The notes beneath the pieces were generated by a model, which saw only the letters and a list, made by a program, of their open reading frames with translations, did no database searches and was not told the origin of the DNA. DNA of 64,000 nucleotides, taken from positions 4,064,001 to 4,128,000 of the forward strand of contig OZ241867.1 in NCBI GenBank assembly GCA_965203175.1, read 5' to 3'. The DNA is from Candidatus Latescibacterota bacterium. Lineage in GTDB: Bacteria; Latescibacterota; UBA2968; UBA8231. A program made the translations under genes and the position numbers. This document shows positions 16,287-50,866 of this stretch, piece after piece (within the stretch, counting starts at the first letter, position 1; each line of letters opens with the position of its first letter).

Positions 16287-16330
16287 GACCGACTTTCATT
16301 GAATACGTCCGATATAGAGAAGAGAGAGTC

Positions 16331-19476: not shown

Positions 19477-19499
19477 GGTTGACTTGGTGATCCAGTGGC

Positions 19500-19974: not shown

Positions 19975-19980
19975 AGATAG

Positions 19981-20009
19981 ATTATAAAAAATAACAGACA
20001 ATTCGTCTA
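19981..20009 (-). promoter_or_regulatory. Sigma70 promoter of brnTA, predicted leaderless
   Basis: TAGACG-17 nt-TATAAT, then 6 nt to ATG 19974; no SD. Confidence 0.55.
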
Positions 20010-25433: not shown

Positions 25434-25606
25434 CGCGGGCCTCCTTGAAGGTAAAGCAGCCGTAGGGACTGCGGTTAGGCGTGGAACATAATTATAATAT
25501 CATTTTCATTCGACATACAACGTACCAAACGAAAAATATAGCCTAAGCGTTATTTTTTCGGTCCCGGGCATTTATAGGGCGAGTGCACTCGAAAAAAGGA
25601 GTTTCC

Positions 25607-31192: not shown

Positions 31193-32824
31193 ATGAAAAG
31201 ACCCTTGCTGCTCACATCGGGTTTTTGCACAGCCGCGCTATTGCTCGCGGGGTGCGGCAAAGACGATCCAGTACTCGCTCGGGTCGGCGATGTGGATATC
31301 CGGGCCAGTGCATATCGGAGTTTTGTCGAGCGCCTACCCGCTAGCCTGCAGAGCGAGCAGGAGGGGCGGGCGGGCGATTTGGAGCACCTGCAATCAATGG
31401 TCGATCGGGAACTGCTCTTCCACGAAGCCCAGGCCAAGGGGATAGATTCGAGCGCGGCTGTAAAAGGGCCGGTTGAACGGTTAGCCAGGAACCGCTTGGT
31501 CAATACCTATCAGTTGCGGATAGTAGCACCGAGGATAAAAGTGGAGGCGGCACAGGTGGAACGCGCTTTTCTCGACCGAGGTTTTGACCGGGAGCGGCTG
31601 CTCAGTCGCATTGTGGTGGAGAGTCCAGAGGAGCGCGACCAAGTGCTGATTGAGCTGCGGGAAGGCAGGGCCTTTGCCGAATTGGCGCAGCGCTTCGCCG
31701 ACAACGATCCAGTGGCCGAGGAAGATGGGGTAGTAGGGTGGATCGGGCTACCCCACTTGGACTGGTACAAAGTGCCGAGAGCGGCTTTTTTCTCTCTGCC
31801 AAAGGGACAGGTGGCTCGACCAGTGCGTCTGCCGGGAGCGTGGCAGATCTATCGTTTTGCGGAAGACCGAAAATCCGAGCTGACCGACTACTCGGAAGGT
31901 GTACACCGTCTGCTGGAAAGCGAGGCTTGGCAAGCGGAACTAGAGCGAGAGTTTGAGCTTTTGAGCCAGAGTTATGGGTTGCGCCTGAACGTCGAAGGTC
32001 TGGAACGGCTGCGGCAGGGACCGATTAGGAACCTCGTTCTGGCGTCGGACGAAGCGACCCAGACTTTATACAGCTTTTCGGAGGAGAAGATTGCGGTCGG
32101 GGAGGGTTTGACCGAGCTCAGAGAAGCGGGGATGGGTGGAGAATTGCCCAGCGGCCAGCAAGGGGTTGATCTTTTAGAGGACTTGGTAGTGCGGCCTAGG
32201 CTTTTCGCCGCAGCCGCCCGGGCTAAGGGCTGGGAGCGCGAGCCGGAGTTTGCGGAGTGGCTGACGCGCAAGAGGGAATGGTTGGTTCTGCGGGCCTTGG
32301 TGCAGGCGCAGACGGCTTTGCAGGAGCCGATCTCAGAAGCCGAGAGTAAGGCTTATTATCAAGCCAACGCAAATAAATTTCGCAGCCCAGAGGAGGTGGA
32401 AATTCGCGAGGTCCTAATGGCGACGGAAGCGCAAGCTCAGTCCCTGCGGGAGGAGATCGAACAGGGGGCCGAGATGTCTGCACTGCTGAACAGACCGGGC
32501 GTCGGCTCCCACGCAGGACCGGGTAGAACGGGAAAAATGACTTTGCGCCGCCTCTTCCGATCCCGCTATCCACAACTGGTTGACGCTGCATTTGCTGCTG
32601 AGGAAGGCGAACTAGTGGGGCCGGTGGAGACGCACGATGGCTTTGCGGTTTTTAGGGTTTTGGGACGAAAAGGAGGGCAGACCCTGCCCTTTGAACGGGT
32701 GCGGAAAAGGGCGGAAGCCCTGCTGAGACAGCGTCGCGAGCAAGAGGGTATTGTCGAACTGATCGGAGCCCTGCGGGCCAAAGGCAAAACTCAGGTAGTT
32801 TTTTTTACCGACCGCCTGCAATGA
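31193..32824 (+). CDS. SurA/PrsA-like parvulin (PpiC) peptidyl-prolyl isomerase lipoprotein, two rotamase domains
   Basis: Lipobox LLAGC; VLARVG, F.ELAQRF..D..., G..A.PV, YY.AN..KF..PE.V.IREVL, G.LVGPVET..GF.VF.V. Confidence 0.8.
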   Translation: MKRPLLLTSGFCTAALLLAGCGKDDPVLARVGDVDIRASAYRSFVERLPASLQSEQEGRAGDLEHLQSMVDRELLFHEAQAKGIDSSAAVKGPVERLARNRLVNTYQLRIVAPRIKVEAAQVERAFLDRGFDRERLLSRIVVESPEERDQVLIELREGRAFAELAQRFADNDPVAEEDGVVGWIGLPHLDWYKVPRAAFFSLPKGQVARPVRLPGAWQIYRFAEDRKSELTDYSEGVHRLLESEAWQAELEREFELLSQSYGLRLNVEGLERLRQGPIRNLVLASDEATQTLYSFSEEKIAVGEGLTELREAGMGGELPSGQQGVDLLEDLVVRPRLFAAAARAKGWEREPEFAEWLTRKREWLVLRALVQAQTALQEPISEAESKAYYQANANKFRSPEEVEIREVLMATEAQAQSLREEIEQGAEMSALLNRPGVGSHAGPGRTGKMTLRRLFRSRYPQLVDAAFAAEEGELVGPVETHDGFAVFRVLGRKGGQTLPFERVRKRAEALLRQRREQEGIVELIGALRAKGKTQVVFFTDRLQ

Positions 32825-32848
32825 GCGGCAACGGAAGGAAAATCCGTT

Positions 32849-35800
32849 ATGAAAGCGAGCCGCAAATTCAGTAAGGGGATTACGTACGCAGCAGTCTGGC
32901 TGGCCGGAATGTGCGCTCCTAGTCCGATCAATGCCCAGCAAGGATACGATATTGTCGGCGATCAAGTCGTCGTCGAAGGTGAGCAGCACTGGGTCAACTG
33001 GAAGCGGCCCGGCCATTTGACCGCTATAGATGCTTCCGGGGCCGTGCGGCCCCGCGAGCTGCGCCAAGTCTACAATCTGTTGGACGATAGGAGCTTTGAG
33101 CGCCCGGTAGAGATCGACAAAAAGGCTCCGCGGATTGCAACCGTCGACAGTACCCTGCGCTTAGATGTACTGGGTAACCCCCTGCAGGACGTCAGCAAAA
33201 ATTTCATCTACGACTACATAGTGCGGCCGGGCGTTAGCCGGGTGGGCTCCAACCCGCACTTGGCTCCCAACATTCTCGACGACGATACGACCACATTCTG
33301 GGAACCGAATCCAGACGATCCAATCGGCGACTGGTGGATCGAGGTGCACCTCGGGAGAGTGGTGCCGCTGGAGCGGCTCAGGCTGCAATTCGTCGACGAG
33401 CAATTGGGCGACCCCTTCCTCAAGTTCCTGCTGTTCTTCGAGAAAAAACAGTTGCCCTTGGTGCGGGACGACAGCAAGCTCAGATTTTCGATTTTCGCGC
33501 CTTTTGACGGGGTCAACAAAGACCAGCGGATCTTCGCATTCGACAGCGAGCGCACCAGTGGCTTGTTGCCCGCCGATGTGTCCGGCCTTATGGCGAAGCG
33601 GCTGTCCATGGGCAATGCCGATCCCAACTGGACGGGCCGACTGGTAGAGGTCATCCGCATCACCATAACGGACACCCGAGGGGCCCGAAGCGAGCAAATA
33701 ACCCAAGAGGCGTGGGAAGCGCTGCCCGAGGGGGAGCGCGGCGATGTGGTGTACTTTGTGCGCGATGTGGCCGGACGGGAGGAACCCGTGGACGAGGCCA
33801 CCTACGAGGTCCTGAGACCGGATCGACAAGGGCGGAGGGTCTATTACCGGCGGGAACTGCCGCGCTTGGCCGAAGTGGACGCTTGGGGCTGGGGAGATAA
33901 TATCGCGTTGGGCATGCTCGAAACGGGTGGTGGGATCGAGCACACCATCGCCGCTTCGGGCGGCACGGGCAAGGCCTTTGACGGGCAAGTGTCATCCTTC
34001 TATCGCCACACCTATTTCCTCGAGGAGGTTCCCGACGACAACATCCTGATCGCCGATGTAGGGGGCACTGTGTGGATGGACCAAATGCGGATCCTCTCCG
34101 AAGGCTACGTCCATGCCCCGACAGTACGGGGCTATACCATGCGGGGCTCGTCGGGAGTTCGAGACGCCCAAGGCCGGCTCAAATGGCAACTCATTAGTCC
34201 GAAACAGCGCGACAAAAACGTCGATGAGGGGTATTACTCGTTGCTCAACGACGTGCAGAGTCCACCTATAAAGCTGCGATTTTTTGAATTTATCACCCTC
34301 AAGAACCAGCCGCCCGGCAACACGGGTACGCAGGGTTTCTATAATCCCGGTATTGGGGAGTTCATGATCTTCTCCAAAGGGTCTCCGGCCGAGGTAGTGC
34401 TCGAATCCGATGCGATCGAGTTGCCCGGATTGGTGGTGCTGGGGTCCGTGCGCTGGGAGGCCGAGTTGCCGTTCGGCACTGATGTGGAGATCCGCACGCG
34501 CACAGGAGACCAACTGCTGCAGCACATCCGCTACTTTGACAGTGGCGGCGGCGAGGTCACAGCGGACAAGCACAAGAAGCTGCCGGGCTTTCGCAAAGGA
34601 CCCGTTGACACCTCGTTCGTAATCGGGCCGGATTGGACCCCTTGGAGCCAGCGCTACTTGCATTCGGGCGCCCGGGTGACGTCTCCGAGTCTGCGCAAAT
34701 TCATGCAGCTCCAGGCGAAACTGGTCAGCAATGACCGCAACGTCGCTCCCCTGCTCCGCAGGATTGAAGTCGATATGCACCGTCCAGTTCTACAAAATCT
34801 GCTGGCCGAAGTCTGGCCAGAGGAGACGAGCGTGGGTCAGGTAGATACCTTTGAGGTCTATCTCCAGCCGACCTTGCTAGAAGAACCCCGCTCGGAGCGG
34901 AGTCCTGGCTACGACGAGGTACTGCTGAGTTCGGAGCCGAGCCTCGACATGCGCCTGCTGGATGTGGCTCTGGGAACGGAAGGGGAATTCGCCCGCGGAC
35001 AGCCGCTGCAGTTGTTCTCGATAGATCGAGCAGAGGACGCGGTCAGTGCCGATGGTGCAGTACTGCAGATCCTGCGCAGCCAGGGGGATTCACTACAGGT
35101 GCGTTTTCCCCAAGTGAAGCGCGGCGAGTCCGCAGACGTCCTGCCGCACCGCTACTATCGGCTGCTAGTCGAGGGGGACGAGGTGCCAACGCGGTCGGAC
35201 GGCCGATTGCTCGACTTGCTTTCCTACGAGCGGCTCGACGAAGAATTGCAGGGAGCGATCCGCTATTTCCGCAAAACTGATCGTGACGGCGCACAGTTGG
35301 AGGAGGTGGACGCAGCGACCTATGAAGCCTTAGAAGAGGGCGAGCGGGGTCCGGTGCGCTATTTTCGCAGGGTAACTGGAGTGGGCAACCAGTCGCTCTT
35401 CGATTCGCTGGGCGATACGCTGAGTGCGGCCCAGTACAACCGACTCGGGAGGGCAAAGGGATGGGTTTTGGGTCATGGCCGCCTAGTGCGCCTGCGCTTT
35501 GCCGCGGCGGTCTTTTTGCACGGAACCAAACTAAAGACCGCGATGCGCAACAGCGCCATTGAGGGCCCTTGGCAGGAAAGCGATCCCGGCGATGTCACCC
35601 GGACCCGGCCCGGCCAGGGCTTGGTGATCGGGGCCTTGGGAGCCGGCGACGTAGTGGACGATTTGCAGATTAGCCCCAACCCATTCACCCCCAACGGCGA
35701 CGGCATCAACGACGTGGCAGAAGTCGGCTTTTCGCTTTTCAAAGTATATGAAGCTCGGTCGCTCAAGCTGCGCATCTTTCGCCTAGACGGGACGCGGGTG

Positions 35801-35974
35801 CGCACGGTAGCCATGAGGGCCTTGGGGGGGAGGCAGAACTTTGCTTGGGATGGAAGAGACGACAACGGTGCGCTGGTGCCTCCGGGACTCTACTTAGCTC
35901 AGATAGAGGTCGATGCAGATCAGGCTGGGGCGGCGGGACAAAAGCGGTCGCGTCTGATTGCAGTGGTGTATTAG
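32849..35974 (+). CDS. Large secreted protein with discoidin-like domains and C-terminal FlgD-Ig/gliding-motility-CTD-like domain
   Basis: Signal peptide; ILDDDTTTFW...WIEVHLG (F5/8-like); IRTRTG, WTPWS, SPS..KFMQ, EVWP; C-terminal SPNPFTPNGDGINDV, IFRLDG..VR, WDGRD, VPPGLY. Confidence 0.8.
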   Translation: MKASRKFSKGITYAAVWLAGMCAPSPINAQQGYDIVGDQVVVEGEQHWVNWKRPGHLTAIDASGAVRPRELRQVYNLLDDRSFERPVEIDKKAPRIATVDSTLRLDVLGNPLQDVSKNFIYDYIVRPGVSRVGSNPHLAPNILDDDTTTFWEPNPDDPIGDWWIEVHLGRVVPLERLRLQFVDEQLGDPFLKFLLFFEKKQLPLVRDDSKLRFSIFAPFDGVNKDQRIFAFDSERTSGLLPADVSGLMAKRLSMGNADPNWTGRLVEVIRITITDTRGARSEQITQEAWEALPEGERGDVVYFVRDVAGREEPVDEATYEVLRPDRQGRRVYYRRELPRLAEVDAWGWGDNIALGMLETGGGIEHTIAASGGTGKAFDGQVSSFYRHTYFLEEVPDDNILIADVGGTVWMDQMRILSEGYVHAPTVRGYTMRGSSGVRDAQGRLKWQLISPKQRDKNVDEGYYSLLNDVQSPPIKLRFFEFITLKNQPPGNTGTQGFYNPGIGEFMIFSKGSPAEVVLESDAIELPGLVVLGSVRWEAELPFGTDVEIRTRTGDQLLQHIRYFDSGGGEVTADKHKKLPGFRKGPVDTSFVIGPDWTPWSQRYLHSGARVTSPSLRKFMQLQAKLVSNDRNVAPLLRRIEVDMHRPVLQNLLAEVWPEETSVGQVDTFEVYLQPTLLEEPRSERSPGYDEVLLSSEPSLDMRLLDVALGTEGEFARGQPLQLFSIDRAEDAVSADGAVLQILRSQGDSLQVRFPQVKRGESADVLPHRYYRLLVEGDEVPTRSDGRLLDLLSYERLDEELQGAIRYFRKTDRDGAQLEEVDAATYEALEEGERGPVRYFRRVTGVGNQSLFDSLGDTLSAAQYNRLGRAKGWVLGHGRLVRLRFAAAVFLHGTKLKTAMRNSAIEGPWQESDPGDVTRTRPGQGLVIGALGAGDVVDDLQISPNPFTPNGDGINDVAEVGFSLFKVYEARSLKLRIFRLDGTRVRTVAMRALGGRQNFAWDGRDDNGALVPPGLYLAQIEVDADQAGAAGQKRSRLIAVVY

Positions 35975-36017
35975 AAGAGAGGTCCGACGGCTGTACCCTT
36001 TGAGAAATGGGGATGCT

Positions 36018-38675
36018 GTGAGAGCCAAATTTTCGACACTGTGCTTGTTGCTTGGCGTCTTGGCTGGGATGGCCGAGGCGCAGATGGACTATGGCATGCG
36101 TCTCGGGCTCAGGCAGGGTGCCGAGACCAGTTTTCGGCCCCAGGGACCGGGAGTGATGCTGGACGCCTTAGACCCAGCGGTGCGGCGCTGGTACGTGCCG
36201 CAGGAGCTCTACAACGAGTATGGCTGGCGCCAGTGGGAGTACACCAACTACGCCCGCGACCATTTTGATCGTTACGTCAATACGGCCCTGGAGGGGGATT
36301 ACTTCTACGATATCTACGGGAATTTTGTCACGCGCGGTTGGCTGATCTTCAACAACACGCAGACCCGGCCGCAACAATTTGGCAATACCCTGTTCAAGTC
36401 GGAGCGCTTCCGGCAGTGGTTCTCAGAGGTGGTGGTGGCTGGTGACCAGAAAGGGGAGTACGCCTACGCGCTGACCTTAAGCAGCCAGTTGCGCACCACC
36501 CTGACGCCGATGACCTTCTCCAAACCGCGGATGGACGGGGTGCAATTTGATCTAGCCACGGATCGCTACGAGACGACACTGATCTACTCGCGCATCAGCA
36601 GCCCGGGTGGGGGCGAGACCGGTGGCCAGGAAGTGCTGCGCACCAACAATACGACTCTGGTCGCCGGACGCTTTGTCGGCCAAATCGGCGAGTACGCCCG
36701 GCTGGGCTTCAATTTGGCCAATTCGCACCAGTCGAATACGCTGACGGATCGGCTGGCTGGGAATCCGTTCTCCGGTCTGCTGACCGTGGGGCAAAACCGG
36801 ACGATTGATCTAGTGCAAATTGTGCTGCGCGACGACTCGCCGGAAGACGAAGTCGGTGGGGCTGCTTTCTTCCCGGCCGGTTCCGACGTGGTCATCACCT
36901 ACAGCGACGGTCGCAAGGAGCGGGGCAAGGACATTGGCTTTGAGCCCGTGGTGGAAGGCGGCTTCGTAGAGAAGGGCTTTATCGCGGCCAAGGGCGTTGA
37001 AGAGATCCGCCTGCTCTACGATTTTGACAGCCTCGACTTCATCGAGCGGGCCAGCGCTGCCAAGGATTCCATTGTCAACGTGGAATTCGAACTAGTAGTC
37101 GGCAACGACTACCAGATCTGGATGACTTCGAACAACCAGACCAACCGGCAGGGAGAGTTGGTGTTGCTTTTGGTCGACCAAGCTAGGGGCAATATCAAGG
37201 ACGCGACCAACCTGCGCACGATTCGCTTTGCCTATGGTCTGCCCACGGCTACGCACATTTTTGGGGGAACTCTAGAGTTACTCGATGTGGCGGGGTTTGA
37301 TTTGTACGCCGAGTACGATCTGAACTGGAACTACCGCAAGTACCCCAACACCTTTGCAGAGACGCACCGGACTTCGTCGGGGGTCGAGGGACGGCGCTAT
37401 GCACCAGCGTGGATGGTGAACGTGGCCAAGCGCGCCCATCCGTTTTTCATGTTTGGCGAGGTCTACAGCATGGACCCCCTCTACAATACCAGCACCTTTG
37501 TCACCTTGGGAACGGGCGAGATCAACTACGAGAGCGAGCGCGAGGGCATCGTCGAACTAGTCGAGGACAACGACGACCAAGATCGCTTCCCCGACACGGT
37601 TCGGTCCGACTGGCAGGCGGGTGACCCTCAGGTCTTTCCAGGCTGGGACCAAAACAACGACTTTGTGCCCGACTTCAATCAGAACGACAACTTAGTCAAG
37701 ACTAATATCATCCCCGATTACGAAGAGCCCTTTCTGCGCTTTGGCGTCGATCGGCCGGAGTTTTTGTTCGGGGTGGACATGAACAACAATTTCTGGGTTG
37801 ATCAGTACGAAAACGACGAAGAGCCCGACTATCCCTACCGCAGAGACCACCGGGGCTACAATGTGTACGGCGGCGTCAACGCGACCCCTAAGTTGCGGCT
37901 GACGGCCGGCGTGTTGCGCGAAGACCTGATTTCCTCGGACCAGAAAAACCACAGTGTGTACGCGGCTTTGACCTTTGACGAAGATTCGCCGCGCTTTGGT
38001 CGTTTGCGCGTCTTTGAGATGAGCAAGAAGGTGGAGGACGATATCCCCAACCCATTGCTACAGTGGTCGCCGGACAACACCGTCTTGGGCGGGGTGCTAA
38101 CCCGGGTGGACGATCCGCTGCTGGCGCGCGATACCTGGGTCAACCAGCTCTTTGTCGGCCACAATTTGCAGAGCGCGGCGCTGCACCTGATGAGTAAGCT
38201 GAACTATGTGCACTTCCGCCAACTGATGGGCCAGGCAAAACGGCAGGAGTTGGGGTTGGACGAGACGGATTTCTTCCTCGGGCTGATCAACAAGGCCAGC
38301 TACCGCTATCAACTGGGCCAGTTAGTCCTGGAACCGCGCTGGAAGAGCGAGTTCCGCAAGCAGAGCCGCAGCCTCTTCGACGCGGTCGAGCGCACAAGCC
38401 TAATGCAGCTCTTCTCGACTCTAATGGAGGTGCAGCTCCTACAGGTGACGCGGCTGCAGGTGGGCGTCGAATACGTGGTTTTCAACGACTTCGATATCGA
38501 CGCCGAAGATTTCAACTCTCTGACCGTAGGCCTGCAGTTTGCCAATACATCGGCCTACCACGGCTACCAAGTGATGGCCTTGGTGGGTATTGCGCTGGAA
38601 CGGCGGGATTTTAAGGAAGCCGAGCCTAGTACTACGAGCCGGTCTTTCGTGACTATTTACGCGGGGCTGGAATAG
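36018..38675 (+). CDS. Uncharacterised exported protein, predicted outer-membrane beta-barrel-containing (paralog A)
   Basis: Signal peptide from GTG 36018 (..LAGMAEA|Q); alternating hydrophobic strands in the C-terminal third ending FVTIYAGLE; Asp/Asn-rich Ca-binding-like block. Confidence 0.7.
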   Translation: MRAKFSTLCLLLGVLAGMAEAQMDYGMRLGLRQGAETSFRPQGPGVMLDALDPAVRRWYVPQELYNEYGWRQWEYTNYARDHFDRYVNTALEGDYFYDIYGNFVTRGWLIFNNTQTRPQQFGNTLFKSERFRQWFSEVVVAGDQKGEYAYALTLSSQLRTTLTPMTFSKPRMDGVQFDLATDRYETTLIYSRISSPGGGETGGQEVLRTNNTTLVAGRFVGQIGEYARLGFNLANSHQSNTLTDRLAGNPFSGLLTVGQNRTIDLVQIVLRDDSPEDEVGGAAFFPAGSDVVITYSDGRKERGKDIGFEPVVEGGFVEKGFIAAKGVEEIRLLYDFDSLDFIERASAAKDSIVNVEFELVVGNDYQIWMTSNNQTNRQGELVLLLVDQARGNIKDATNLRTIRFAYGLPTATHIFGGTLELLDVAGFDLYAEYDLNWNYRKYPNTFAETHRTSSGVEGRRYAPAWMVNVAKRAHPFFMFGEVYSMDPLYNTSTFVTLGTGEINYESEREGIVELVEDNDDQDRFPDTVRSDWQAGDPQVFPGWDQNNDFVPDFNQNDNLVKTNIIPDYEEPFLRFGVDRPEFLFGVDMNNNFWVDQYENDEEPDYPYRRDHRGYNVYGGVNATPKLRLTAGVLREDLISSDQKNHSVYAALTFDEDSPRFGRLRVFEMSKKVEDDIPNPLLQWSPDNTVLGGVLTRVDDPLLARDTWVNQLFVGHNLQSAALHLMSKLNYVHFRQLMGQAKRQELGLDETDFFLGLINKASYRYQLGQLVLEPRWKSEFRKQSRSLFDAVERTSLMQLFSTLMEVQLLQVTRLQVGVEYVVFNDFDIDAEDFNSLTVGLQFANTSAYHGYQVMALVGIALERRDFKEAEPSTTSRSFVTIYAGLE

Positions 38676-38687
38676 GCGGTTGTCAGG

Positions 38688-39623
38688 GTGGTGCCGATTC
38701 TGCTGGGGATAGGGCTCTTTTGGAGTTGTAGTGAAACCGGGCCAGAGGCCCGCGCCCAACAGCACTACCAACGGGGGGTCGAATACGAAGCGCAGGACAT
38801 GCCGGCCAGCGCAGCGCGGGAGTACGAGGAGGCCGCGGCTGCGGGGATGATGGAGGCCTATTACGCGCTGGGCACAGTGTACGGGAAGGAGGAGCAACAC
38901 GAGCGGGCCATTGGCGCGTACCGAGCGTTGCTGCGGCAGTGGCCGGAGGAGGAGCAGGCGCGCAAGGGATTGGCGGATCAGTATCTAGCGGTGGGACGGG
39001 CCGCGGAAGCGGGTGCTCTATACGAAGCGCTCTTGGCCGTGGGGGAGCCGTGGGAGGGATTGTGGGGACGGCTGGGGGATGCCCGGCTCGTAGCCGGCGA
39101 TGCGGAAGGGGCTGAGGAAGCGTATCGAAAGATGCTCGCAGCGGCACCGGATAGCACTCGGGTGCGCTATAGCTTGGCGCGGCTTTGGGCGGAACAGGGA
39201 CAGCGCCGGGAGGCGATTGTCGAGTACCGGCAGCTTGTGGAAAACCCCGCTTGGGCGGACGAGGCCGGGCAGCGCTTGGCCGATCTGCTCTTGGAAGCGG
39301 GGGAAGTGGAGGAAGCCGAGCAGTTGCTGCGGGATTTGTTGGAGCGCCAGCCCGAAGCGCGGTCGGCGCTGTGGAGCTTGGGAGGGCTGCTCTTTCGCGC
39401 GGAGCGCTACAGCGAATCCTTGGTCTGCTTCGAGCGCTTGCGGGCGCTAGACCAGGAGGACTATCGCGTCTATTTCTTGCTCGCCAAGCTCTACGGCCGC
39501 ACGGGCAGGGAAGCAGAAGGATTAGAGGCGCTCGCAGCGTACGAACGCGGACGGCGGACGGCGCAGGTGCACGAGCGCATGGAGGAAGAGATCGAGGGCC
39601 TTTTGCGGAACATCCTGAAATAG
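38688..39623 (+). CDS. TPR repeat lipoprotein
   Basis: Lipobox LFWSC; multiple TPR units (AYYALG..Y, A...Y..LL, ALWSLG). Confidence 0.85.
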   Translation: MVPILLGIGLFWSCSETGPEARAQQHYQRGVEYEAQDMPASAAREYEEAAAAGMMEAYYALGTVYGKEEQHERAIGAYRALLRQWPEEEQARKGLADQYLAVGRAAEAGALYEALLAVGEPWEGLWGRLGDARLVAGDAEGAEEAYRKMLAAAPDSTRVRYSLARLWAEQGQRREAIVEYRQLVENPAWADEAGQRLADLLLEAGEVEEAEQLLRDLLERQPEARSALWSLGGLLFRAERYSESLVCFERLRALDQEDYRVYFLLAKLYGRTGREAEGLEALAAYERGRRTAQVHERMEEEIEGLLRNILK

Positions 39624-39629
39624 AGAAAA

Positions 39630-41711
39630 ATGAGACACCTCTTCCACATCACATGGCTGGTATGCGGCTCGCTGATCCTGATGGCTAGCGCGGGACAAGC
39701 GCGCCAAGTACTGAGGATCGGCGGGGAGGGACAGATTTCGTGGGCGGGGCAGGTTTTGGACGCGGAAGGCATTGAGACGATTGAGCCCGAGCATCGCTCT
39801 ACCCTCAACCCGAACCTCACCGAGATCGGCACCTCTCCGGCCGACCTGGTCGAATTCGCCAGTGCCAATTTCCCCGGCGGCATTCTGCCACGGCAGGTGG
39901 CCGAAGGCGAGAATCTGGCTACTGGTATTTACGCGCGCGGCGGTGGCATGAGTGCGCCGACGGTCGTCAATCTCGGCCGGGCACAGCTAGAGGAGGTCTT
40001 GGCGCAAGTGGCCGGGGAAAAGTCCACGGGCAAGGCCTTCACGCGCCAGCAGAACGACGCTTTGGGTACGCTGCTGGTCATGGATTTGGGGGCTCGCTTT
40101 GGGGTCAACCAGATCCGCTTTTTTCCGCGCAACACGGTTTTTCCCGCGCCGATGACGCCGTTCCAGAGCAATTTTCTCAAGAATTTCGAGGTCCACGTCA
40201 ACGATGGGCTGGTACTGACCGAGGGCGGCAATCCAATCTGGGAGATATTTGAAATCCGCAACAACAACACCCAGGCCGTCACTACAGTCGATGTCGAGCC
40301 GCCGCGCTACATCCGTTTTGTGCGCTTGAAGGCCACTTCGTCGATTCCATTTGAAATAGAAAAGCTGCAAATCTTCGGCGAGGGCTTCCTGCCCACTGTG
40401 CGCTATATCTCGCCGATCATTGACATGGGCACGCCGGCCAATTGGGGCCAGTTGCGCTGGGCACAGGAACTGGTGGGCCAAGCGGACAAGGCGCAAATGC
40501 AGATTCGCACCCGCAGTGGCGGCGACCCCTCGCCGCTGTCCTACACCCGCAAGCAGGTCGGTCTGAGAAACGCCGAGCCAATTCCATTCTCGGTAGAAGA
40601 CCCGTCCCAGCCTTTGTTGCGGGACGAGTTCCTCGATCTGCCGTTGAGGGGTGGGCAGACCGATGCTTGGGAGCGCGGCCCGGTGCGAGACGATTTGGCG
40701 AATTGGAGCCCTTGGTCGCCGCCCTACGGCATAGAGGCGGGCACCAGCGAAGCGGGTACGCCGATCCTGTCGCCCTCGCCACGGCGCTACTTCCAGTTTC
40801 GGGTCGACTTTCTCAGCGACGATCTGGGATCGGCCTTTGTACTCAAAGATCTCTCGTTCGATTACACCTCGCCGCCGCTGGCCGACCGCTTGGTCGGCGA
40901 GGTCTTCCCGCGCCAAGTGCCGGCGGCCACGGATATTTCCTTTGTCTTCGCCCTGAAAGTCGAAATGGAGAACGCCGGACTACAGGGCTTCGACAGCGTC
41001 GAAATTGCCACTGTCCAACGAGTGGACCGCATCGAGCGCATCGAGATCATCGACGGAGATGGCGAAAAGCGGCTCGACCACGCCTTTGCCGTGCAGGACG
41101 ATGTGAGCGAAGAAGGCGAGGTGGCCATCACTCATTTGACGGATGCGGGTTTTGCGGTGCGCTTTCCGCGCATAGCAGAGGACAATACTGTGCTGAAAAT
41201 TCACTTTGTCACTCGGGTGTTGTCGTATAGCACATCCTTTGCGGGCCGGGCCATGCTGCTAGCAGAGGACGAGTTCCAAGGGGTTATTGCCGGCGACGCC
41301 GCTCAGTTGGCCGACGCCGACCAGGCCACTCGATCCGGGGTCACGGTCCTGAGCCCGGCGGTGAATCAGGGCAGTCTGATCGGCAGTTTTTCGCTCGACC
41401 GCAACGTGCTAACGCCCAACGGCGACGGAACCAACGACGAGTTGGCCCTGTCCTGCGAAGTGCTGGCCGTAGTGGGCACGGCCCGAGTCCGGGTGGATAT
41501 TTTCGATCTGGCAGGCCGCCGCGTGCGCCATCTTTTCGAATTCGACGGGGAGAGCGGCGTGTACGACGCCGTGCGTTTCCCCATGTTGGTATGGGATGGA
41601 AAAGATGGGGTCGGCGAACTAGTTCAGCCTGGGATCTACTTGGTGCGTCTCGAAGTGGGCGGCGACGCGCGCCAGAGTGCGAGTGCTCGTCCAGTGGGCG
41701 TGATTTATTAA
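39630..41711 (+). CDS. Secreted FlgD-Ig/CTD-domain protein (paralog 2)
   Basis: Signal peptide; DLG..FGVNQIRFFPR, FEIEKLQIFGEGF, IRTRSG, WSPWSPPY, SPSPRRYFQ, GEVFP, LTPNGDGTND, IFDLAGRRVR, WDGKD, VQPGIY. Confidence 0.8.
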   Translation: MRHLFHITWLVCGSLILMASAGQARQVLRIGGEGQISWAGQVLDAEGIETIEPEHRSTLNPNLTEIGTSPADLVEFASANFPGGILPRQVAEGENLATGIYARGGGMSAPTVVNLGRAQLEEVLAQVAGEKSTGKAFTRQQNDALGTLLVMDLGARFGVNQIRFFPRNTVFPAPMTPFQSNFLKNFEVHVNDGLVLTEGGNPIWEIFEIRNNNTQAVTTVDVEPPRYIRFVRLKATSSIPFEIEKLQIFGEGFLPTVRYISPIIDMGTPANWGQLRWAQELVGQADKAQMQIRTRSGGDPSPLSYTRKQVGLRNAEPIPFSVEDPSQPLLRDEFLDLPLRGGQTDAWERGPVRDDLANWSPWSPPYGIEAGTSEAGTPILSPSPRRYFQFRVDFLSDDLGSAFVLKDLSFDYTSPPLADRLVGEVFPRQVPAATDISFVFALKVEMENAGLQGFDSVEIATVQRVDRIERIEIIDGDGEKRLDHAFAVQDDVSEEGEVAITHLTDAGFAVRFPRIAEDNTVLKIHFVTRVLSYSTSFAGRAMLLAEDEFQGVIAGDAAQLADADQATRSGVTVLSPAVNQGSLIGSFSLDRNVLTPNGDGTNDELALSCEVLAVVGTARVRVDIFDLAGRRVRHLFEFDGESGVYDAVRFPMLVWDGKDGVGELVQPGIYLVRLEVGGDARQSASARPVGVIY

Positions 41712-41723
41712 AAGGAGGCCGCA

Positions 41724-43769
41724 ATGCTGCGCCTAGGACTGATGATCTGCGGAGTGGGGACTTTTATTAGCACCGAGGCTTGGGGCCGGGCGGAGTTCCA
41801 CCTCGGTGGTGCTGAGGGCAATGTCTGGCAGGAGCTAGTCGAAGGCGGAGAAGGGGAGTACGCGGCAGTTGACGCCGAAGGGAATATCGTCGGGGTCTTC
41901 CCCGTCTCCTCGGTGCCGCTGGAGCCAGTGGCCGATCCTTTGATGAAGGACTCCGGCAAAGTCGTCATGATCGATTTCGCCGACAATACCCTGCGGCCGG
42001 TTTTGATTGATCCTGCGGAAAACCTGTCGCTGTCCATTGCCGAAAGGGGAGGCGACATCAACACCAGCATCCACGTCGCGTATACCAAAGAGGAGAGAAA
42101 GACCGTCGAACCAATCGTCGACGGCAATATCGAAACAGCGACGCTGCGACCCGTGGATATCTCGCCGCGCCTCGCCGGAGTCAACATAGGCAATGTCAAG
42201 AACATAGTGGTCAACCTAGGGGCTGAGTTACCCATCAACCGCATTCGCTTCTATCCGCGGCCGGGGTTTGAGGACAATTACTTGGCTTGGTACGAAATTA
42301 GCGTGGCCGACGCTACGGTGCCCTTTGTAGACCTGCCTGGTCAGCGCCGCCCAGGCAAGCGCTGGTACCAAGACATAAGCCGCGCTCTCGGAGCGAAAAA
42401 CGATCCGGCCTTTGACATCTTAGAGCGGAACTTGGAAAACCTCGACGTGGTAGTGGACTACCGCTTCCCAACGCGCGATCTAAAGTGGATTGGCATTCGG
42501 CCCTTGGACCCCGAGCGCACTTGGGAGATCGCCGAATTCGAGATCTACGGCGAGGGTTTTGTCACCCACACCGAGTACCGCACGCCCATCCTCGACTTTG
42601 GTCGTCCGGTGTCTTGGAGCAAAATCCGCTGGCGCGGTGCCATGCCCGAGGGTACACAAATTCAGTTGCGCACCCGCACCGGCAATACGCCGCAGCCCAA
42701 TCGGTTCTTCAGCATTGAGCGGACGGGCAATTTCGTCGAGATCGATCGCAAAGCCTACGACCTGACGTTCAGCGCCGGGTCTTTCAACGACGTGACTAGA
42801 AGCATCGACGCAGAGAACTGGAGCTCCTGGTCGCCGCCATACGACTTTGCAAGCGGTCTCCGCGACGAGGCCGTGTCGGCCGCAGCCTGGACGGATGGCA
42901 CACCACTGATGTCGCCTGGGCCGAGCCGCTATTTGCAACTCGAGATCGTCTTAACTGCCGACCGCGACCAAGCGCCCCGCATCGACGAGTTGTCGCTGCT
43001 TTTTGGCGAGGAATCGGCGGCCCGGGACGTGATCGCCGAGGTCTGGCCGATCGAGACGGAGAGTTTTGCTCCCCACACCTTTACGTATGTGGTGCGACCC
43101 CTCCTCGAAGAGAACAATACCGGGTTCGACCGCTTGGAAATTGCGACCCAGACTCGGGCTGAAGCCGTGCGGGCCGTTCTGGTGGATGGGGTGGACACAA
43201 CAGCGGATTTCCCGCCCGAGATCCAAGACGATCGCATCGTGGTGGGCTTTGAATTGCTGCGGGGGGTAGAGGATAGTGAGAAGCGGGTCGAGGTGGTCTT
43301 TGACGCCAAGGTGCTGCGTTTTGGCACCGAGTTCAGCGGCTGGGTCTACAACAGCGCCGAGCCGACCTTGAAGCAGCAGGTAAAGGCGGGAAACGCGACC
43401 TTTCGTTTTGGCGGGGACGTGCTTTCGGTCAACACGCCCATGGGCGGGGATCTGATCAGCGATTTGCGGGTGATGCCGCCGACCTTTACGCCCAATGACG
43501 ACGGGGTCAACGACCGCGTGCGCATTGCCCACGATGTGCGCAACTTAGGTACCTTGCGACAGCTAGAGGTGCAGATCTTCGACCTAGCCGGACGCCTAGT
43601 GGCAGATGTGGCCGGAACTGGAACCCAAAGTGGCGTTTTTGAGCACCAGTGGGACGGGCGAGACGCAGGGGGGAAAGTGGTTGCGCCCGGAATATACGTG
43701 TACAAAATATCGCTCGATACAGACCGGGGCAGCCAAGCGGCCAGTGGTCTGGTTGCCGTGGCCTATTGA
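41724..43769 (+). CDS. Secreted FlgD-Ig/CTD-domain protein (paralog 3)
   Basis: AGGAGG SD; NLG..LPINRIRFYPR, WEIAEFEIYGEGF, LRTRTG, WSSWSPPY, SPGPSRYLQ, EVWP, FTPNDDGVND, IFDLAGR, WDGRD, VAPGIY. Confidence 0.8.
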   Translation: MLRLGLMICGVGTFISTEAWGRAEFHLGGAEGNVWQELVEGGEGEYAAVDAEGNIVGVFPVSSVPLEPVADPLMKDSGKVVMIDFADNTLRPVLIDPAENLSLSIAERGGDINTSIHVAYTKEERKTVEPIVDGNIETATLRPVDISPRLAGVNIGNVKNIVVNLGAELPINRIRFYPRPGFEDNYLAWYEISVADATVPFVDLPGQRRPGKRWYQDISRALGAKNDPAFDILERNLENLDVVVDYRFPTRDLKWIGIRPLDPERTWEIAEFEIYGEGFVTHTEYRTPILDFGRPVSWSKIRWRGAMPEGTQIQLRTRTGNTPQPNRFFSIERTGNFVEIDRKAYDLTFSAGSFNDVTRSIDAENWSSWSPPYDFASGLRDEAVSAAAWTDGTPLMSPGPSRYLQLEIVLTADRDQAPRIDELSLLFGEESAARDVIAEVWPIETESFAPHTFTYVVRPLLEENNTGFDRLEIATQTRAEAVRAVLVDGVDTTADFPPEIQDDRIVVGFELLRGVEDSEKRVEVVFDAKVLRFGTEFSGWVYNSAEPTLKQQVKAGNATFRFGGDVLSVNTPMGGDLISDLRVMPPTFTPNDDGVNDRVRIAHDVRNLGTLRQLEVQIFDLAGRLVADVAGTGTQSGVFEHQWDGRDAGGKVVAPGIYVYKISLDTDRGSQAASGLVAVAY

Positions 43770-43801
43770 CGAGGCCGGCCATTTACTGGAGAAAGTTCGC
43801 A

Positions 43802-46534
43802 TTGAGACAGCAGCGCAACATACTCAGGGGGATCTTACTCCTGGCCATAGTCGCAGAGGCGACTTGGGGTCAGCAGCCCGACTACGGCTCGCGCTTGGGG
43901 GTCGGGCAGGGCACTGCGACTAATTTCCGGCCCCAAGGGGCCCAGGGGATGTTGGACGCGATCGACCCGGCGGTGCGGCGCTGGTACGTACCGCAGGAAC
44001 TCTTCGCCGAATACCGCTGGCGCCAGTGGGAATACACCAACTACGCCCGCTCTCCCTACCAGCGCTATATAAATGCCGATATAGAGGGGAGCTATTTCTA
44101 CGATCTCTACGGCAATTTCATCAATCAGGGGTGGCTAGTCTACAATACGTCCCAGGAAAGGCCGCAAGAATTTGGCAACGTCGTATTTCAATCCAGCCGT
44201 CTTGACCGATGGTTTTCCGGGGTGGTGGTAGCCGCAGATCAGAAGGGTTCGTATTTCTATGCGCTGACAGTGAGCCGCGACCTGCGCACGACCTTGACGC
44301 CCATGACCTTTTCCAAGGCGCGGCTGGACGGGGTGCAGGCTGACTTGGCCTCGGACAAATACGAGGGCACGCTGATTTATTCGCGCATCAGCGGTCCGCG
44401 GGGGGTCCGGGGACGCGAGGTGCGGCGAACGAGCGCTACTACCTTGTTCGGGGGGCGCTTTACAGCCCAAGTGGGCGACTTCACTGAGATGGGGATTCAC
44501 ATGGTGAATGCCCACCAAGCGAATGCGCTAACGGACCGGGATTTTTTTAAAAATATGATCACCGGTGCGCTGACCGAGAGGCAAAATTTTCAGGGGACCA
44601 GCCAAGCAGTGACCGCGGCTGGCCTGTTCGGAGGGGCCCAAGGAGGAACCGTGGGCTCGAATGCGATAACTGGAATCCAGATTGTGTTGCGCGACGATTC
44701 GCCCGAGGACGGCGTCGGTGGGGCGGCCTTTTTCCCGACCGGCTCCGATGTGCTCATCACCTACAGGGACGGCAGCGTCGATCGCGGCAGAGATATAGGC
44801 TTAGAGCCACTGGTTGAAGGGGGGCTGACAGAGCGGGGCTTTATCTCGGCCAACGGCAGCGAAGAGATCCGGCTGTTCTACGATTTTGGCAAGTCCGATT
44901 TTACCAACCGGGCCAGTGGCGAAGTAGGCGAAATCGTCGGGGTGGAGTTTCGCTTGGTCGTGGCCAACGACTACCAGATCTGGATGACATCGAACAACCA
45001 ACTCGATGTATCGGGCAATCCAGTGCTGCTGCTAGTGGACCAAGCGCGAGGCAATATCCGCGACCTGACCAATTTGCGCACCGTCAGCTTTGAATATGGC
45101 CTGCCCACGGCTACCCATATCTTGGGGGGTACGCTTGCAGTGAACGAGGTACTCGGTTTCGACTTGTACGGCGAGTACGACTTGAGCTGGAGCTACCGCA
45201 AGTATCCCAATGTGCTGGAGAATAAGCACAGAGCTTCTTCGGGCATCAAAGGCCGTCCCAACGCACCAGCTTGGATGGTGAACGCGTCCAAGCTGGCCGA
45301 GCCGTTCTTTTTTTACGGCGAGGCCTACAGCATGGATCCCTTCTACAATACCCAGGCATTTGTCGCCGCAGGTGGCGGCCAGATCGACTACAGTGCCGAC
45401 CGGGACCGCGTGGAACTGGTTGAGGACAACGACGATCAAGACCGAGTCCCCGACGCCTTTCGCAGCGACTGGGTGCAGCCGGATTTGCAGGTCTTCCCAG
45501 GGTGGGACCAGAACAACGACTTTGTACCGGATCTCAACCAGAACGACAATAGAGTCAAGATCAACAATACGCCCGACTACGAAGAGCCCTTCATGCGCTT
45601 TGGCGTCGATCGGCCGGAGTTTTTGTTCGGGGTGGACATGAACAACAATTTCTGGGTTGATCAGTACGAAAACGACGAGGAACCCGACTACCCCTACCGA
45701 CGCGACCATCGGGGCTACAACGCGTACGGCGGTGTATATCTGACGCCGCAACTGCGGCTGATGGCCGGGGTATTGCGCGAGGGGCTGATCTCTTCAGACC
45801 AAAAGAACCACGGTACCTACGCGGTGCTCAACTACGACGGGCTGTCACCGCGCTACGGCCGCCTGCGGATCTTTGAGATGGCCAAGCGGGTAGAGGACGA
45901 CATCCCCAACCCGCTGTTGCAGTGGGCCCCGGACAATACGATCCGGGGCGGAGCCCTGACCCCGTTGGACGATCCGCTCCTGGGACGCGACACCTGGGTG
46001 AACCAGTTCTTTGTCGGCCATAGTCTGAGAACGGCTTCGCTCCTTTTGCTGAGCAAATTGAACTACGTGTACTTCCACCAACGGCTGGACGAGGCGCAGC
46101 GGCAGCGATTGGGGCTGGACGAGACCGACTTTTTCTTTGGTCTCATCAACAAGGCTAGGTACGAGTACGAGTTGGGTCGGCTGATTGTTGAGCCGCGTTG
46201 GAAAAGCGAGTTCCGCAAGCAGAGCCGCACGTTGTTTGCGGCGGGCCAGCACACCAGCCTGATGGAATTGCTCGGTGCCTTGGCGCGGATGCAGCTTTTA
46301 GAGGTGACGCAAGTGCAGGCGGGGATGGAATACGTGTGGTTCGACGACTTTGACGACGACTTCAATGATTTCAACTCCCTGACGGTAGGGCTGCAATTCG
46401 CCAATACGTCGGCCTATCAAGGCTACAGCATCCGGTTATTGACGGGCATCGTCTTGGAGCGCAAGGATTTCAAAGAGCGTCAAGCGATAAATACAACGCA
46501 GGCGTTTATTACAATTTACGCGGGACTGGAGTGA
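43802..46534 (+). CDS. Uncharacterised exported protein, predicted outer-membrane beta-barrel-containing (paralog B)
   Basis: TTG start with signal peptide (..IVAEATWG|Q); colinear with 36018-38675 (DPAVRRWYVPQEL, LRTTLTPMTFSK, LRDDSPED, EPRWKSEFRKQ); ends FITIYAGLE. Confidence 0.7.
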   Translation: MRQQRNILRGILLLAIVAEATWGQQPDYGSRLGVGQGTATNFRPQGAQGMLDAIDPAVRRWYVPQELFAEYRWRQWEYTNYARSPYQRYINADIEGSYFYDLYGNFINQGWLVYNTSQERPQEFGNVVFQSSRLDRWFSGVVVAADQKGSYFYALTVSRDLRTTLTPMTFSKARLDGVQADLASDKYEGTLIYSRISGPRGVRGREVRRTSATTLFGGRFTAQVGDFTEMGIHMVNAHQANALTDRDFFKNMITGALTERQNFQGTSQAVTAAGLFGGAQGGTVGSNAITGIQIVLRDDSPEDGVGGAAFFPTGSDVLITYRDGSVDRGRDIGLEPLVEGGLTERGFISANGSEEIRLFYDFGKSDFTNRASGEVGEIVGVEFRLVVANDYQIWMTSNNQLDVSGNPVLLLVDQARGNIRDLTNLRTVSFEYGLPTATHILGGTLAVNEVLGFDLYGEYDLSWSYRKYPNVLENKHRASSGIKGRPNAPAWMVNASKLAEPFFFYGEAYSMDPFYNTQAFVAAGGGQIDYSADRDRVELVEDNDDQDRVPDAFRSDWVQPDLQVFPGWDQNNDFVPDLNQNDNRVKINNTPDYEEPFMRFGVDRPEFLFGVDMNNNFWVDQYENDEEPDYPYRRDHRGYNAYGGVYLTPQLRLMAGVLREGLISSDQKNHGTYAVLNYDGLSPRYGRLRIFEMAKRVEDDIPNPLLQWAPDNTIRGGALTPLDDPLLGRDTWVNQFFVGHSLRTASLLLLSKLNYVYFHQRLDEAQRQRLGLDETDFFFGLINKARYEYELGRLIVEPRWKSEFRKQSRTLFAAGQHTSLMELLGALARMQLLEVTQVQAGMEYVWFDDFDDDFNDFNSLTVGLQFANTSAYQGYSIRLLTGIVLERKDFKERQAINTTQAFITIYAGLE

Positions 46535-46690
46535 TTGGTCGTTAGAGATCAATAATCTACTGTAAACATTGAATTTATTGAGATTTTACAGCAAGAGAGC
46601 GACATTTTTATTTGCTTTTGGGTACTCAATGAATTAAGTATTTGGCACTATCATCCACTTTTGCCACCCTATGTAAAGGAGGGTATTATC

Positions 46691-47599
46691 ATGCGGAAAC
46701 TATTCTTGGTGTTAGGGATAGGGATTGCATCTATTGCCCAAGCCCACGATCCACCTGACTTGCTGCTGCTCGCAGTGCAGTTCCCCGATACCAATGTGCC
46801 GGTAATCGACGGATTCGACGACGACTGGTCTGCCATTCCCGTTGACCAGTATGGCATTTTCGCCGAGACGACCTATCCGGTGGGTGCTTCGACCCGAGAG
46901 GGGAGAGCGCTGGAATTTGCCTCGCAGGGTGAGATTGATCCCAGCGATATGAATTTCCGCCATTTGATCGGCTGGAGCGATAGCCAGAATATGTTCTACG
47001 TCACGACCTCGGTGTACGACAATTTGCACGTGACCAGCCGCCAGGATCCGGGCAGGTTCTACTGGGACGACAGCTACGAGATGGGGCTAAACGCCGACCA
47101 CACCAATATCGACGACCAGAACACAGGGGATATCGCCAACGGGTTCTACTACAAGTACGCGCTGCCGCCCAAGGACGGTGCCTTTGAATTTTTTAGGCCC
47201 AACCGCAATTTGCCGTGGCTGGTCAACGGTACGCGCTACGTCGAAATCGCCTGGAGCTTTACGGGCGAGGAGTTCGGCGAAAGCACGTATATCTACGAAA
47301 TCCGCATCCTGCCGATCGCGCAGATGCCCCTGAGCGAAGAAGCCACCGAGGATCAGGTAGTGGTTTGGGATTTCGAGGAAGGGCAGATCATCCACTGGGG
47401 CAATATGGTGATCGACGTCGATGTGCTCACCGGCGATGACGATTATCGCCATGGCCAGTGGAGTACCAGCCCTGGGGGGACGGCTGGCCGACCAGTGAGC
47501 GATGTGTTGCTCTCGCCCATAGACCCCGGCATCGAGTGGCCCGAAGCAACCGCAGTGGAAGCGGAGAGCTGGGGGCGGATTAAGGCTCAGTACCAGTAG
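46691..47599 (+). CDS. Secreted CBM9/DOMON-like putative sugar-binding protein with C-terminal TAVE-x2-SWG-x-IK motif
   Basis: AAGGAGG SD; signal peptide; PVIDGFDDDW, IGWS....FY..V.D, DDSYE, YIYE.RI; ends ATAVEAESWGRIKAQYQ. Confidence 0.7.
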   Translation: MRKLFLVLGIGIASIAQAHDPPDLLLLAVQFPDTNVPVIDGFDDDWSAIPVDQYGIFAETTYPVGASTREGRALEFASQGEIDPSDMNFRHLIGWSDSQNMFYVTTSVYDNLHVTSRQDPGRFYWDDSYEMGLNADHTNIDDQNTGDIANGFYYKYALPPKDGAFEFFRPNRNLPWLVNGTRYVEIAWSFTGEEFGESTYIYEIRILPIAQMPLSEEATEDQVVVWDFEEGQIIHWGNMVIDVDVLTGDDDYRHGQWSTSPGGTAGRPVSDVLLSPIDPGIEWPEATAVEAESWGRIKAQYQ

Positions 47600-47626: not shown

Positions 47627-47662
47627 AGAGAGCCCGTCTTTCTAGGCGGGCTCTCTTTTTTT
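47627..47662 (+). terminator. Rho-independent terminator
   Basis: AGAGAGCCCGTCT-ttct-AGGCGGGCTCTCT stem followed by a T run. Confidence 0.85.
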
Positions 47663-49910: not shown

Positions 49911-49911
49911 G

Positions 49912-50850: not shown

Positions 50851-50866
50851 TTGCGAGGAGGGCAAT

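Follow-up and report, generated by a model that had tools for sequence, protein, structure and literature searches.

A large outer-membrane barrel family encoded with type IX secretion cargo in Latescibacterota: a candidate capture-and-import complex

Here we describe a gene cassette in the genome of Candidatus Latescibacterota bacterium (GenBank assembly GCA_965203175.1, contig OZ241867.1), which encodes two giant outer-membrane barrels together with three proteins ending in type IX secretion system (T9SS) C-terminal domains (CTDs). The cassette occupies positions 31193..47599 of a 64,000-nucleotide stretch (contig positions 4,064,001 to 4,128,000), in the following called the window. As an earlier note on this DNA had described, eight co-oriented open reading frames (ORFs) follow one another on the + strand, in the order peptidyl-prolyl isomerase (PPIase), CTD1, barrel A, TPR, CTD2, CTD3, barrel B and CBM9-like. 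From gene content, linkage, co-occurrence and predicted folds, the barrels are predicted to import large solutes as the core of a capture-and-import complex coupled to the proton-motive force, similar to SusC/SusD in function but made from unrelated parts; we give this reading a probability of about 0.45. That the export, shuttle, docking and motor steps laid out below belong to one shared architecture is considerably safer and very probable. Put more broadly, and somewhat more tentatively than import itself, the system may represent a new class of trans-envelope machine that occurs in Latescibacterota, Ignavibacteria and Kryptonia and consists of a ~24-strand barrel with T9SS-delivered lids, driven by an ExbBD/DUF4159/TPR chain. 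It would be a second, independent SusC/D-like importer, which in sponge-associated Latescibacterota has expanded to a tenth of the genome and to which a copper-dependent CBM9-fold enzyme may be attached.

Barrel A (partner A, 885 aa; 36018..38675, + strand) and barrel B (partner B, 910 aa; 43802..46534, + strand) are 66% identical; barrel B starts with TTG, which is preceded by a GGAGA site as read from the sequence. An AlphaFold2 model of barrel A built from a 150-row alignment (pLDDT 86.6, pTM 0.84) has 23 long strands by DSSP plus N-terminal strands, with short turns alternating with long loops, and hydropathy alternation is clear in about half of 25 barrel strands. From the model and the fold searches, both partners can confidently be predicted to be outer-membrane barrels, as the earlier note had supposed. 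The strand count of ~24 is an estimate made from this DSSP assignment. The model contains a 165-aa beta insert (mature residues 220–386) and a 125-aa acidic loop (465–589), which the turn pattern would place on the outer side; the acidic loop and residues 53–81 are the most conserved parts. A fold search for the inserts, made within the whole model and not on separately folded parts, reported no match.

All listed fold matches of barrel A are outer-membrane (or mitochondrial) barrels and none is close, with query-normalised Foldseek TM-scores of at most 0.27. The top Foldseek matches are the S-layer barrel SlpA of Deinococcus (PDB 8ae1, 8agd), which also gave the longest structural alignment (419 residues, root-mean-square deviation (rmsd) 6.7, Z 11.6); other matches include FimD (282 residues, rmsd 4.7, Z 11.6) and the TonB-dependent FptA (256 residues, rmsd 7.1, Z 11.9; a generic barrel match). 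Profiles of SlpA_C matched weakly in 9 of 41 distant barrel members, always in one region of ~100 residues and at best with 28.3 bits against a cut-off of 35, and Pfam found neither SlpA_C nor an SLH domain in the window barrels. The barrel has fewer strands than that of SlpA (30). The family may be a remote relative of SlpA, and only that. Sequence searches assigned the partners to no family, in agreement with the earlier note: NCBIfam gave no match for either, Pfam none for partner A and a single non-significant one for partner B (E 0.087), and TIGR03519, PF11751, PF00593 and the usher families of Pfam and NCBIfam matched neither. The window barrels are also absent from the 30 genomic PF00593 matches, and searches of PDB sequences with barrel, scaffold and lipoprotein returned nothing credible. 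The family itself is large, with 1236 representatives at 50% identity (E 0.001 or better, fragments included). It splits into two clades, homologous across 779 columns, to which the window genome contributes 51 and 11 copies; named homologues of partner A come from Candidatus Latescibacteria/Latescibacterota.

The second component is the set of CTD proteins: CTD1 (1041 aa; 32849..35974, + strand), directly upstream of barrel A, and the shorter CTD2 (693 aa; 39630..41711, + strand) and CTD3 (681 aa; 41724..43769, + strand). The three share only 23–34% identity, and all seven motifs listed before for scaffold and tail occur once each and in the same order in 3/3. CTD1 is composed of a signal peptide, discoidin domains, the conserved beta scaffold and a type-B-like T9SS tail with terminal Tyr. 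The profile checks proposed earlier gave a divided result. Above their cut-offs were FlgD_ig in CTD1 (29.7 bits, cut-off 27) and, in CTD3, CHU_C (42.9 bits) and FlgD_ig (36.2 bits); CHU_C passed in CTD3 only, and the tail matches of CTD2 remained below cut-off. TIGR04131 (cut-off 35) was not reached in any (CTD3 27.3, CTD1 16.1, CTD2 no match), and TIGR03519 was negative on the partners, as given above.

The T9SS character of the tails is supported by a structure model. The AlphaFold2 model of CTD3 (pLDDT 92.6) is all-beta and consists of a CBM32-fold domain (mature residues 74–257), the scaffold, a further beta domain and a T9SS CTD (553–659). The first domain matches CBM32 (Z 14.2, rmsd 2.2, 123 aligned), and the tail matches the CTDs of PorU (Z 12.8, rmsd 2.3, 99 aligned) and PorZ (Z 10.9, rmsd 2.5, 91 aligned), as expected from the earlier comparison with type-B T9SS proteins; for the scaffold (258–552), searched within the whole model and not folded separately, no match was reported. 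Among CTD proteins, variability is highest at the N-terminus and in the CBM32 region and lowest in the tail.

In the window genome, 169 proteins carry both scaffold and tail; all of them end in Tyr. TPNGDGxND is found in 116 of the 169 and PNPFN in none; for 121 a barrel is no more than 10 kb away, compared with 16% for random places. A further 76 tail matches, which include a few false ones such as ankyrin and WD40 proteins, form a different class: 62 contain PNPFN and just 7 are near a barrel. The two tail classes parallel the division into types A and B known from Bacteroidota (PMC12618676, PMC9143113). Seen from the barrels, 62 of 62 have a CTD protein within 6 kb and 43 have a CTD gene directly upstream, with ~2.7 CTD proteins per barrel.

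A motor is added to this pair by distant loci, for which the query was an alignment of six sequences built around a member from Ignavibacteria. Of 96 loci, the best 80 were compared with 8-kb flanks, often ended by contig ends; they come from metagenome-assembled genomes labelled Ignavibacteria, Kryptonia and Bacteroidota. They hold genes for scaffold-CTD proteins (71/80), a ~310-aa small barrel (74), a ~1050-aa TPR protein (64), a lipoprotein (56), ExbB (41), a membrane-anchored DUF4159 protein (40) and ExbD (36). The order CTD gene, small barrel, giant barrel was found in 69 of the 70 loci with sufficient upstream DNA, and downstream follow the long TPR protein, the TonB-like DUF4159 protein, ExbB/ExbD and the lipoprotein. 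All eight DUF4159 N-termini printed have a TonB-like membrane helix with His. In six Ignavibacteria loci (L073, L083, L088, L091, L098, L104) a ~285-aa protein, which we take to be PstS-like, follows ExbB-ExbD-ExbD inside the operon.

Since the small barrel tested (L088) passes PF11751 (28.7 bits, cut-off 22.3) and NF033709, this gene order means that the giant barrel coexists with a PorP-type shuttle. The proposal of the earlier note that the partners stand in for PorP/SprF is thus not supported: a genuine PorP/PorV-family barrel sits between CTD gene and giant barrel. That the giant barrel nevertheless serves as cognate shuttle or anchor and binds the type-B CTD would fit the 43 of 62 barrels with a CTD gene directly upstream and the fact that there are only three close PorP-like genes for 169 cargo proteins, and we regard it as very improbable. 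Besides the gene order, it is opposed by size, as PorP-family shuttles have ~300 aa and 14 strands (the latter from PMC9143113) compared with 885–910 aa and ~24 strands, and by the way in which barrels and cargo diverge.

For 43 adjacent barrel-CTD pairs, barrel distances correlated with distances in the 90 columns before the tail at rho 0.59 (reached in 0/500 shuffles) and with those of the tail itself at rho 0.14 (16/500 shuffles), while other 90-column windows ranged from 0.29 to 0.59. Within clade I only, the gap is smaller (pre-tail 0.41, tail 0.23, other windows 0.28–0.41). Contrary to the idea of the barrel as cognate partner of the CTD, barrel divergence hence tracks the CTD least and the preceding domain most. 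Because co-duplication alone yields such correlations, this is no more than a hint that a shared shuttle receives the tail while the barrel pairs with a different domain of the CTD protein. A complex prediction of barrel A (mature 60–864) with the CTD3 tail (545–659) scored 0.00, which is evidence neither way.

Of the T9SS core genes that the earlier note wanted to see checked, sprA, porU and porV are present. SprA (618 bits), PorU and PorV were all found over cut-off in the window genome, with a porU-porV operon at 2958213–2963109 and a 2129-aa sprA at 2481570–2487959 (both G000:C1, G000 being the window genome). Three close homologues of the Ignavibacteria-type small PorP-like barrel were found as well. 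One PorP-like gene scored on TIGR03519 reached 48.8 bits (cut-off 90.55), and the genome search with TIGR03519 matched only the PorV ORF; since it missed this gene, the search is insensitive. A stand-alone PorP-like copy at G000:C1:4466216–4467226 (L138) shares its C-terminus with that at 3054857.

The system therefore invites comparison with T9SS type-B cargo and its PorP/SprF and PorE partners (SprB-SprF, PG1035-PorP-PorE; PMC9143113, PMC12618676). Shared are the TPNGDGxND-type Ig tail, the Sec signal, SprA, a PorP-family barrel beside the cargo (in the ancestral loci) and a type-A class of its own, accompanied by PorV and PorU. Differences are the additional ~900-aa barrel of another family, the ExbB/ExbD motor, the membrane-anchored DUF4159 protein, the long TPR protein and the lipoprotein; moreover, 169 cargo proteins share about three shuttles, and the Gld motor was undetected in searches lacking a positive control.

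In the window genome, motor-type parts are kept at a few separate loci. Of five long-TPR homologues, all have a membrane-anchored DUF4159 gene nearby, three have ExbB/ExbD and four a barrel within 10 kb. At C1:2.79–2.81 Mb, genes for CTD, PorP-like, barrel, TPR, ExbB, ExbD, ExbD, lipoprotein and PPIase stand in one row. Two relatives show other arrangements: G010 has window-type cassettes and a separate lipoprotein-PorP-TPR-ExbB-ExbD-DUF4159 locus, and in G030 a clade I barrel is directly followed by TPR-ExbB-ExbD-DUF4159. Linkage of motor genes to the barrel is thus shown; they lie in cis in the ancestral loci and in trans for the window cassette. The long TPR protein matched in 85 of 168 genomes of the phylum with only 4 candidates scored per genome, and absences are not evidence because copies missed in G010, G030 and G003 were later found. 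An ExbB-ExbD-ExbD set at G000:C1:5537719–5539427 (L139), 67 kb from any barrel, looks near-identical to that at 6172155–6173755.

Taken together, we propose the following mechanism. CTD proteins would be taken across the inner membrane by Sec and exported by SprA, the T9SS translocon, as tail fold and SprA presence suggest. The conserved Tyr-ending type-B tail would then be recognised by a small number of shared 14-strand shuttles of the PorP-like kind, whose genes lie elsewhere, in analogy to F. johnsoniae, where one shuttle serves three orphan cargo proteins (PMC12618676). The CBM32-bearing proteins might dock on their cognate giant barrel as substrate-binding lids, probably via the pre-CTD beta domain. 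ExbB/ExbD, the inner-membrane TonB-like DUF4159 protein, the ~1080-aa TPR protein and the small lipoprotein would pass force to barrel or shuttle and open the channel. The PPIase would fold components, and DUF6785 or ABC transporters would take up the cargo. Import is preferred because of the size of the barrel, the TonB-like motor, the variable lectin-fold lids, the linkage to transporters and the near absence of SusD, for which Pfam found nothing in the cassette and one weak match, with an internal stop, in the genome.

The linkage to transporters was obtained from neighbour enrichment with custom profiles (within 15 kb of a barrel; background 13%): 32 of 53 DUF6785 membrane proteins and 8 of 17 ABC permeases are near barrels, and 4 of 34 TonB-dependent receptors. 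The same analysis also provided points that weigh against import. The tightest extra neighbours of barrels are GT-C-TPR (14/15) and FG-GAP proteins (42/57), which points to the assembly or decoration of a structure on the cell surface. Enrichment is slight for sulfatases (12/52) and absent for enolases (6/85) and PhyH proteins (11/108), and carbohydrate-active enzymes made up 3 of 60 neighbour proteins scanned (60 of 100 candidates). The genome already has ~27 TonB-dependent receptor ORFs (30 PF00593 matches). The window cassette itself lacks motor genes, and G000, G010 and G003 each have a motor locus with a PorP-like gene from which the giant barrel is missing; it may therefore be the shuttle that the motor serves. 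In addition, PPIase, CBM9-like and DUF6785 genes occur in 0/80 distant loci; in four genomes (G098, G099, G107, G108) 46–89 barrel candidates stand against only 2–6 scaffold matches among 15 scored; and no TonB-box-like element is visible in the barrel, as residues 1–28 of the model have low confidence.

Several of these points would be expected if the cassette served surface display or adhesion, with the barrel as anchoring platform and the lectin-like proteins either as adhesins carrying glycans or as a variable coat suited to living in a sponge. The motor chain would then extract shuttle-cargo from SprA in place of GldLM/GldKN, or move complexes along the envelope as Agl-Glt/Nfs machines do. 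We consider this the less likely explanation, though it comes close behind import because of the glycosyltransferases, the few carbohydrate-active enzymes nearby and the barrel-free motor loci with shuttle in three genomes. GT-C-TPR, FG-GAP and PPIase genes cluster with barrels, the longest structural alignment and the 9/41 weak SlpA_C matches are to an S-layer protein, and GldL, GldM and GldN gave no match over cut-off in the window genome or the relatives tried. Known type-B cargo is largely adhesins (PMC12618676), and in Bacteroidota the energy-requiring step is the ejection of carrier-cargo complexes from SprA (PMC12635249). The Gld searches had no positive control, however, and the SlpA_C matches are below cut-off over a short region. 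As nothing more than an anchor, a barrel of 24 strands with a conserved segment that probably lies in its lumen would be oversized, and display leaves the DUF6785 linkage unexplained. Furthermore, 28 barrel-negative genomes keep SprA, so the T9SS overall does not need the barrel module.

An usher-like role, in which the giant barrel is an export and assembly pore for CTD proteins, with the PPIase as chaperone and short fibres of one long and several short subunits as product, appears improbable. The strand number near that of FimD, the all-beta subunits, the number of CTD proteins per barrel and the chaperone PPIase included in most cassettes of the window genome fit it. Yet the subunits have T9SS-type tails, the genome has SprA, and a PorP-like shuttle is encoded alongside; in Ignavibacteria the loci mostly contain just one or two CTD proteins and never a PPIase. 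Pfam and NCBIfam gave no usher family, and the barrel A model stops at the last barrel strand, whereas ushers have periplasmic N- and C-terminal domains.

For the import complex favoured here, the obvious functional counterpart is SusC/SusD, whose loci encode a TonB-dependent large outer-membrane barrel with surface glycan-binding TPR lipoprotein lids. Common to both are a large outer-membrane barrel, lectin-type surface partners, ExbBD with a TonB-like protein, dozens of loci and linked inner-membrane transporters. In contrast to SusC, the barrel has no match to TonB-dependent receptors; the lids are CBM32-fold T9SS cargo and not TPR lipoproteins, and nearby carbohydrate-active enzymes are rare. 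The suggestion that the cassette might substitute for SusC/D is plausible. As a machine, the system recalls Agl-Glt/Nfs and Tol-Pal, which are motor-TPR-barrel machines with an ExbB/ExbD-type motor, TonB-like protein, lipoprotein and surface protein; it combines ExbB and one or two ExbD with a TonB-like protein anchored in the membrane, a long TPR protein and a lipoprotein, together with outer-membrane barrels and a protein on the surface. It differs in that the transducer carries DUF4159, the surface proteins are T9SS cargo, and neither TPR nor DUF4159 proteins matched the Glt family at E 1e-5.

The window genome, a single contig of 6.58 Mb, contains 62 barrel paralogues in 40 loci, so that the cassette, which had been taken for a module present twice, is one of 40 barrel-bearing loci. 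Together with 46 CBM9-like and 43 PPIase family matches, barrels and scaffold proteins make up 10.4% of the genome (8.6% for barrels and scaffold proteins alone). Of 30 other genomes of the genus, three have the whole cassette at 95–96% identity and a fourth has pieces of it; the remaining ones have paralogous cassettes near 70% identity. Among 168 genomes of the phylum, barrels were found in 107 and scaffold in 106: both in 105, barrel only in 2, scaffold only in 1 (borderline) and neither in 60, which bears out the predicted co-occurrence and tight linkage of CTD and barrel genes in relatives, kin not being independent in these counts. SprA is present in 52 of 52 hand-picked phylum genomes, 28 of which are barrel-negative. 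The TPNGDGxND pattern was found in DNA of 0/14 SprA-positive barrel-negative genomes compared with 4/7 barrel-positive ones. Because SprA also occurs where barrels are missing while the type-B motif was found only where they are present, barrel and type-B cargo form an accessory module added to a T9SS that spans the phylum; that T9SS-like genes exist beyond Bacteroidota has been proposed earlier (PMC11285876). For PF13585 and the lipoprotein, the searches of other genomes lacked a positive control. The barrel candidates of G098, G099, G107 and G108 have best scores typical of clade II and form a separate expansion, perhaps with other partners.

Three cassette genes encode neither barrel nor CTD protein. 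The first (31193..32824, + strand) encodes a parvulin/PrsA-SurA-like PPIase with a lipoprotein-type signal (Rotamase_2, 84.5 bits), putatively the cassette chaperone; 34 of the 43 PPIase family matches lie within 10 kb of a barrel, so that cassettes do carry their own folding catalysts as the earlier note had it. The second is a 311-aa TPR lipoprotein (38688..39623, + strand), which matches the C-terminal half of GT-C (PMT_2)-TPR proteins with 28–40% identity and so corresponds to the TPR half of a PMT-like protein; in 6 of 8 sister cassettes, a GT-C-TPR protein occupies the position after barrel A. The third is the CBM9-like secreted protein (46691..47599, + strand; CBM9 match E 2e-4, Atlas CBM9_1). 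It has His at mature position 1 and a conserved His119, which lines up with Asn in CBM9, and its C-terminus carries an AVExxxWGxIK tail. Of 44 paralogues, 35 have His1 and 36 His119 (both 35, neither 8, His119 only 1), where kin are not independent and the cleavage site was inferred by eye. With His1 and a second conserved His, the protein shows the sequence feature of histidine-brace copper proteins and would be a candidate for one. The AVExxxWGxIK tail (window 47560–47599) occurs on 61 genes of the genome, 38 of them CBM9-like, and had no Pfam or NCBIfam match in the window protein; possibly it is an undescribed sorting signal. Inspection by eye of the upstream DNA of 24 CBM9-like genes showed no common motif.

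Intergenic gaps in the cassette are 6–43 bp, except for ~156 bp upstream of the CBM9-like gene. At the cassette end, an intrinsic-terminator-like hairpin (47627..47656, + strand; consensus match only) with a 13-pair stem followed by a T run is the strongest among 24 sites; a promoter scan did no better than chance, with 6 found where 5.1 were expected. Contigs from four metatranscriptomes with ~91–99% identity to the stretch span 30, 27, 30 and 17 of 30 bins, and in 4/4 the CBM9-like gene lies on a separate, deeper contig, where contig depth cannot rank genes. As the runs were chosen using the window stretch itself and DNA may be present, no claim on expression is drawn. RNA runs labelled as sponge metagenome contain close relatives. 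Directly past the terminator (47683–52375, + strand) lie a sugar ABC transporter (SBP_bac_1, two permeases) and a DUF3604 protein, followed by what we take from the sequence to be an enolase-like and a sulfatase-like gene. Elsewhere in the window, 25583–27457 (+ strand) encodes an extracytoplasmic function (ECF) sigma factor with a ~450-aa C-terminal extension with TPR-like repeats, and 16001–20000 has a GC content of 0.51 compared with ~0.60 in the surroundings, possibly acquired DNA.

The combination of barrel, lectin and motor matches no system known to us and is apparently undescribed; family searches place the partners with none of PorP, TonB-dependent receptors, SlpA or ushers. A literature search on Latescibacterota T9SS, outer-membrane barrels and DUF4159 that mostly covered sources other than subscription journals and supplements found no description of the barrel system, and the main text of PMC12993501 does not mention secretion, TonB or the outer membrane.

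The cassette thus reveals a large outer-membrane barrel family without a Pfam, NCBIfam or PDB sequence family, which several lineages link to T9SS cargo and a conserved motor. If display is true, it would show how a T9SS without detectable Gld motor handles type-B cargo. If import is true, it would explain how Latescibacterota feed on polymers nearly without SusD, and the SusC/D solution would have evolved twice. In either case, the single-copy operon of Ignavibacteria and Kryptonia offers a compact version of the system for structural and genetic work.

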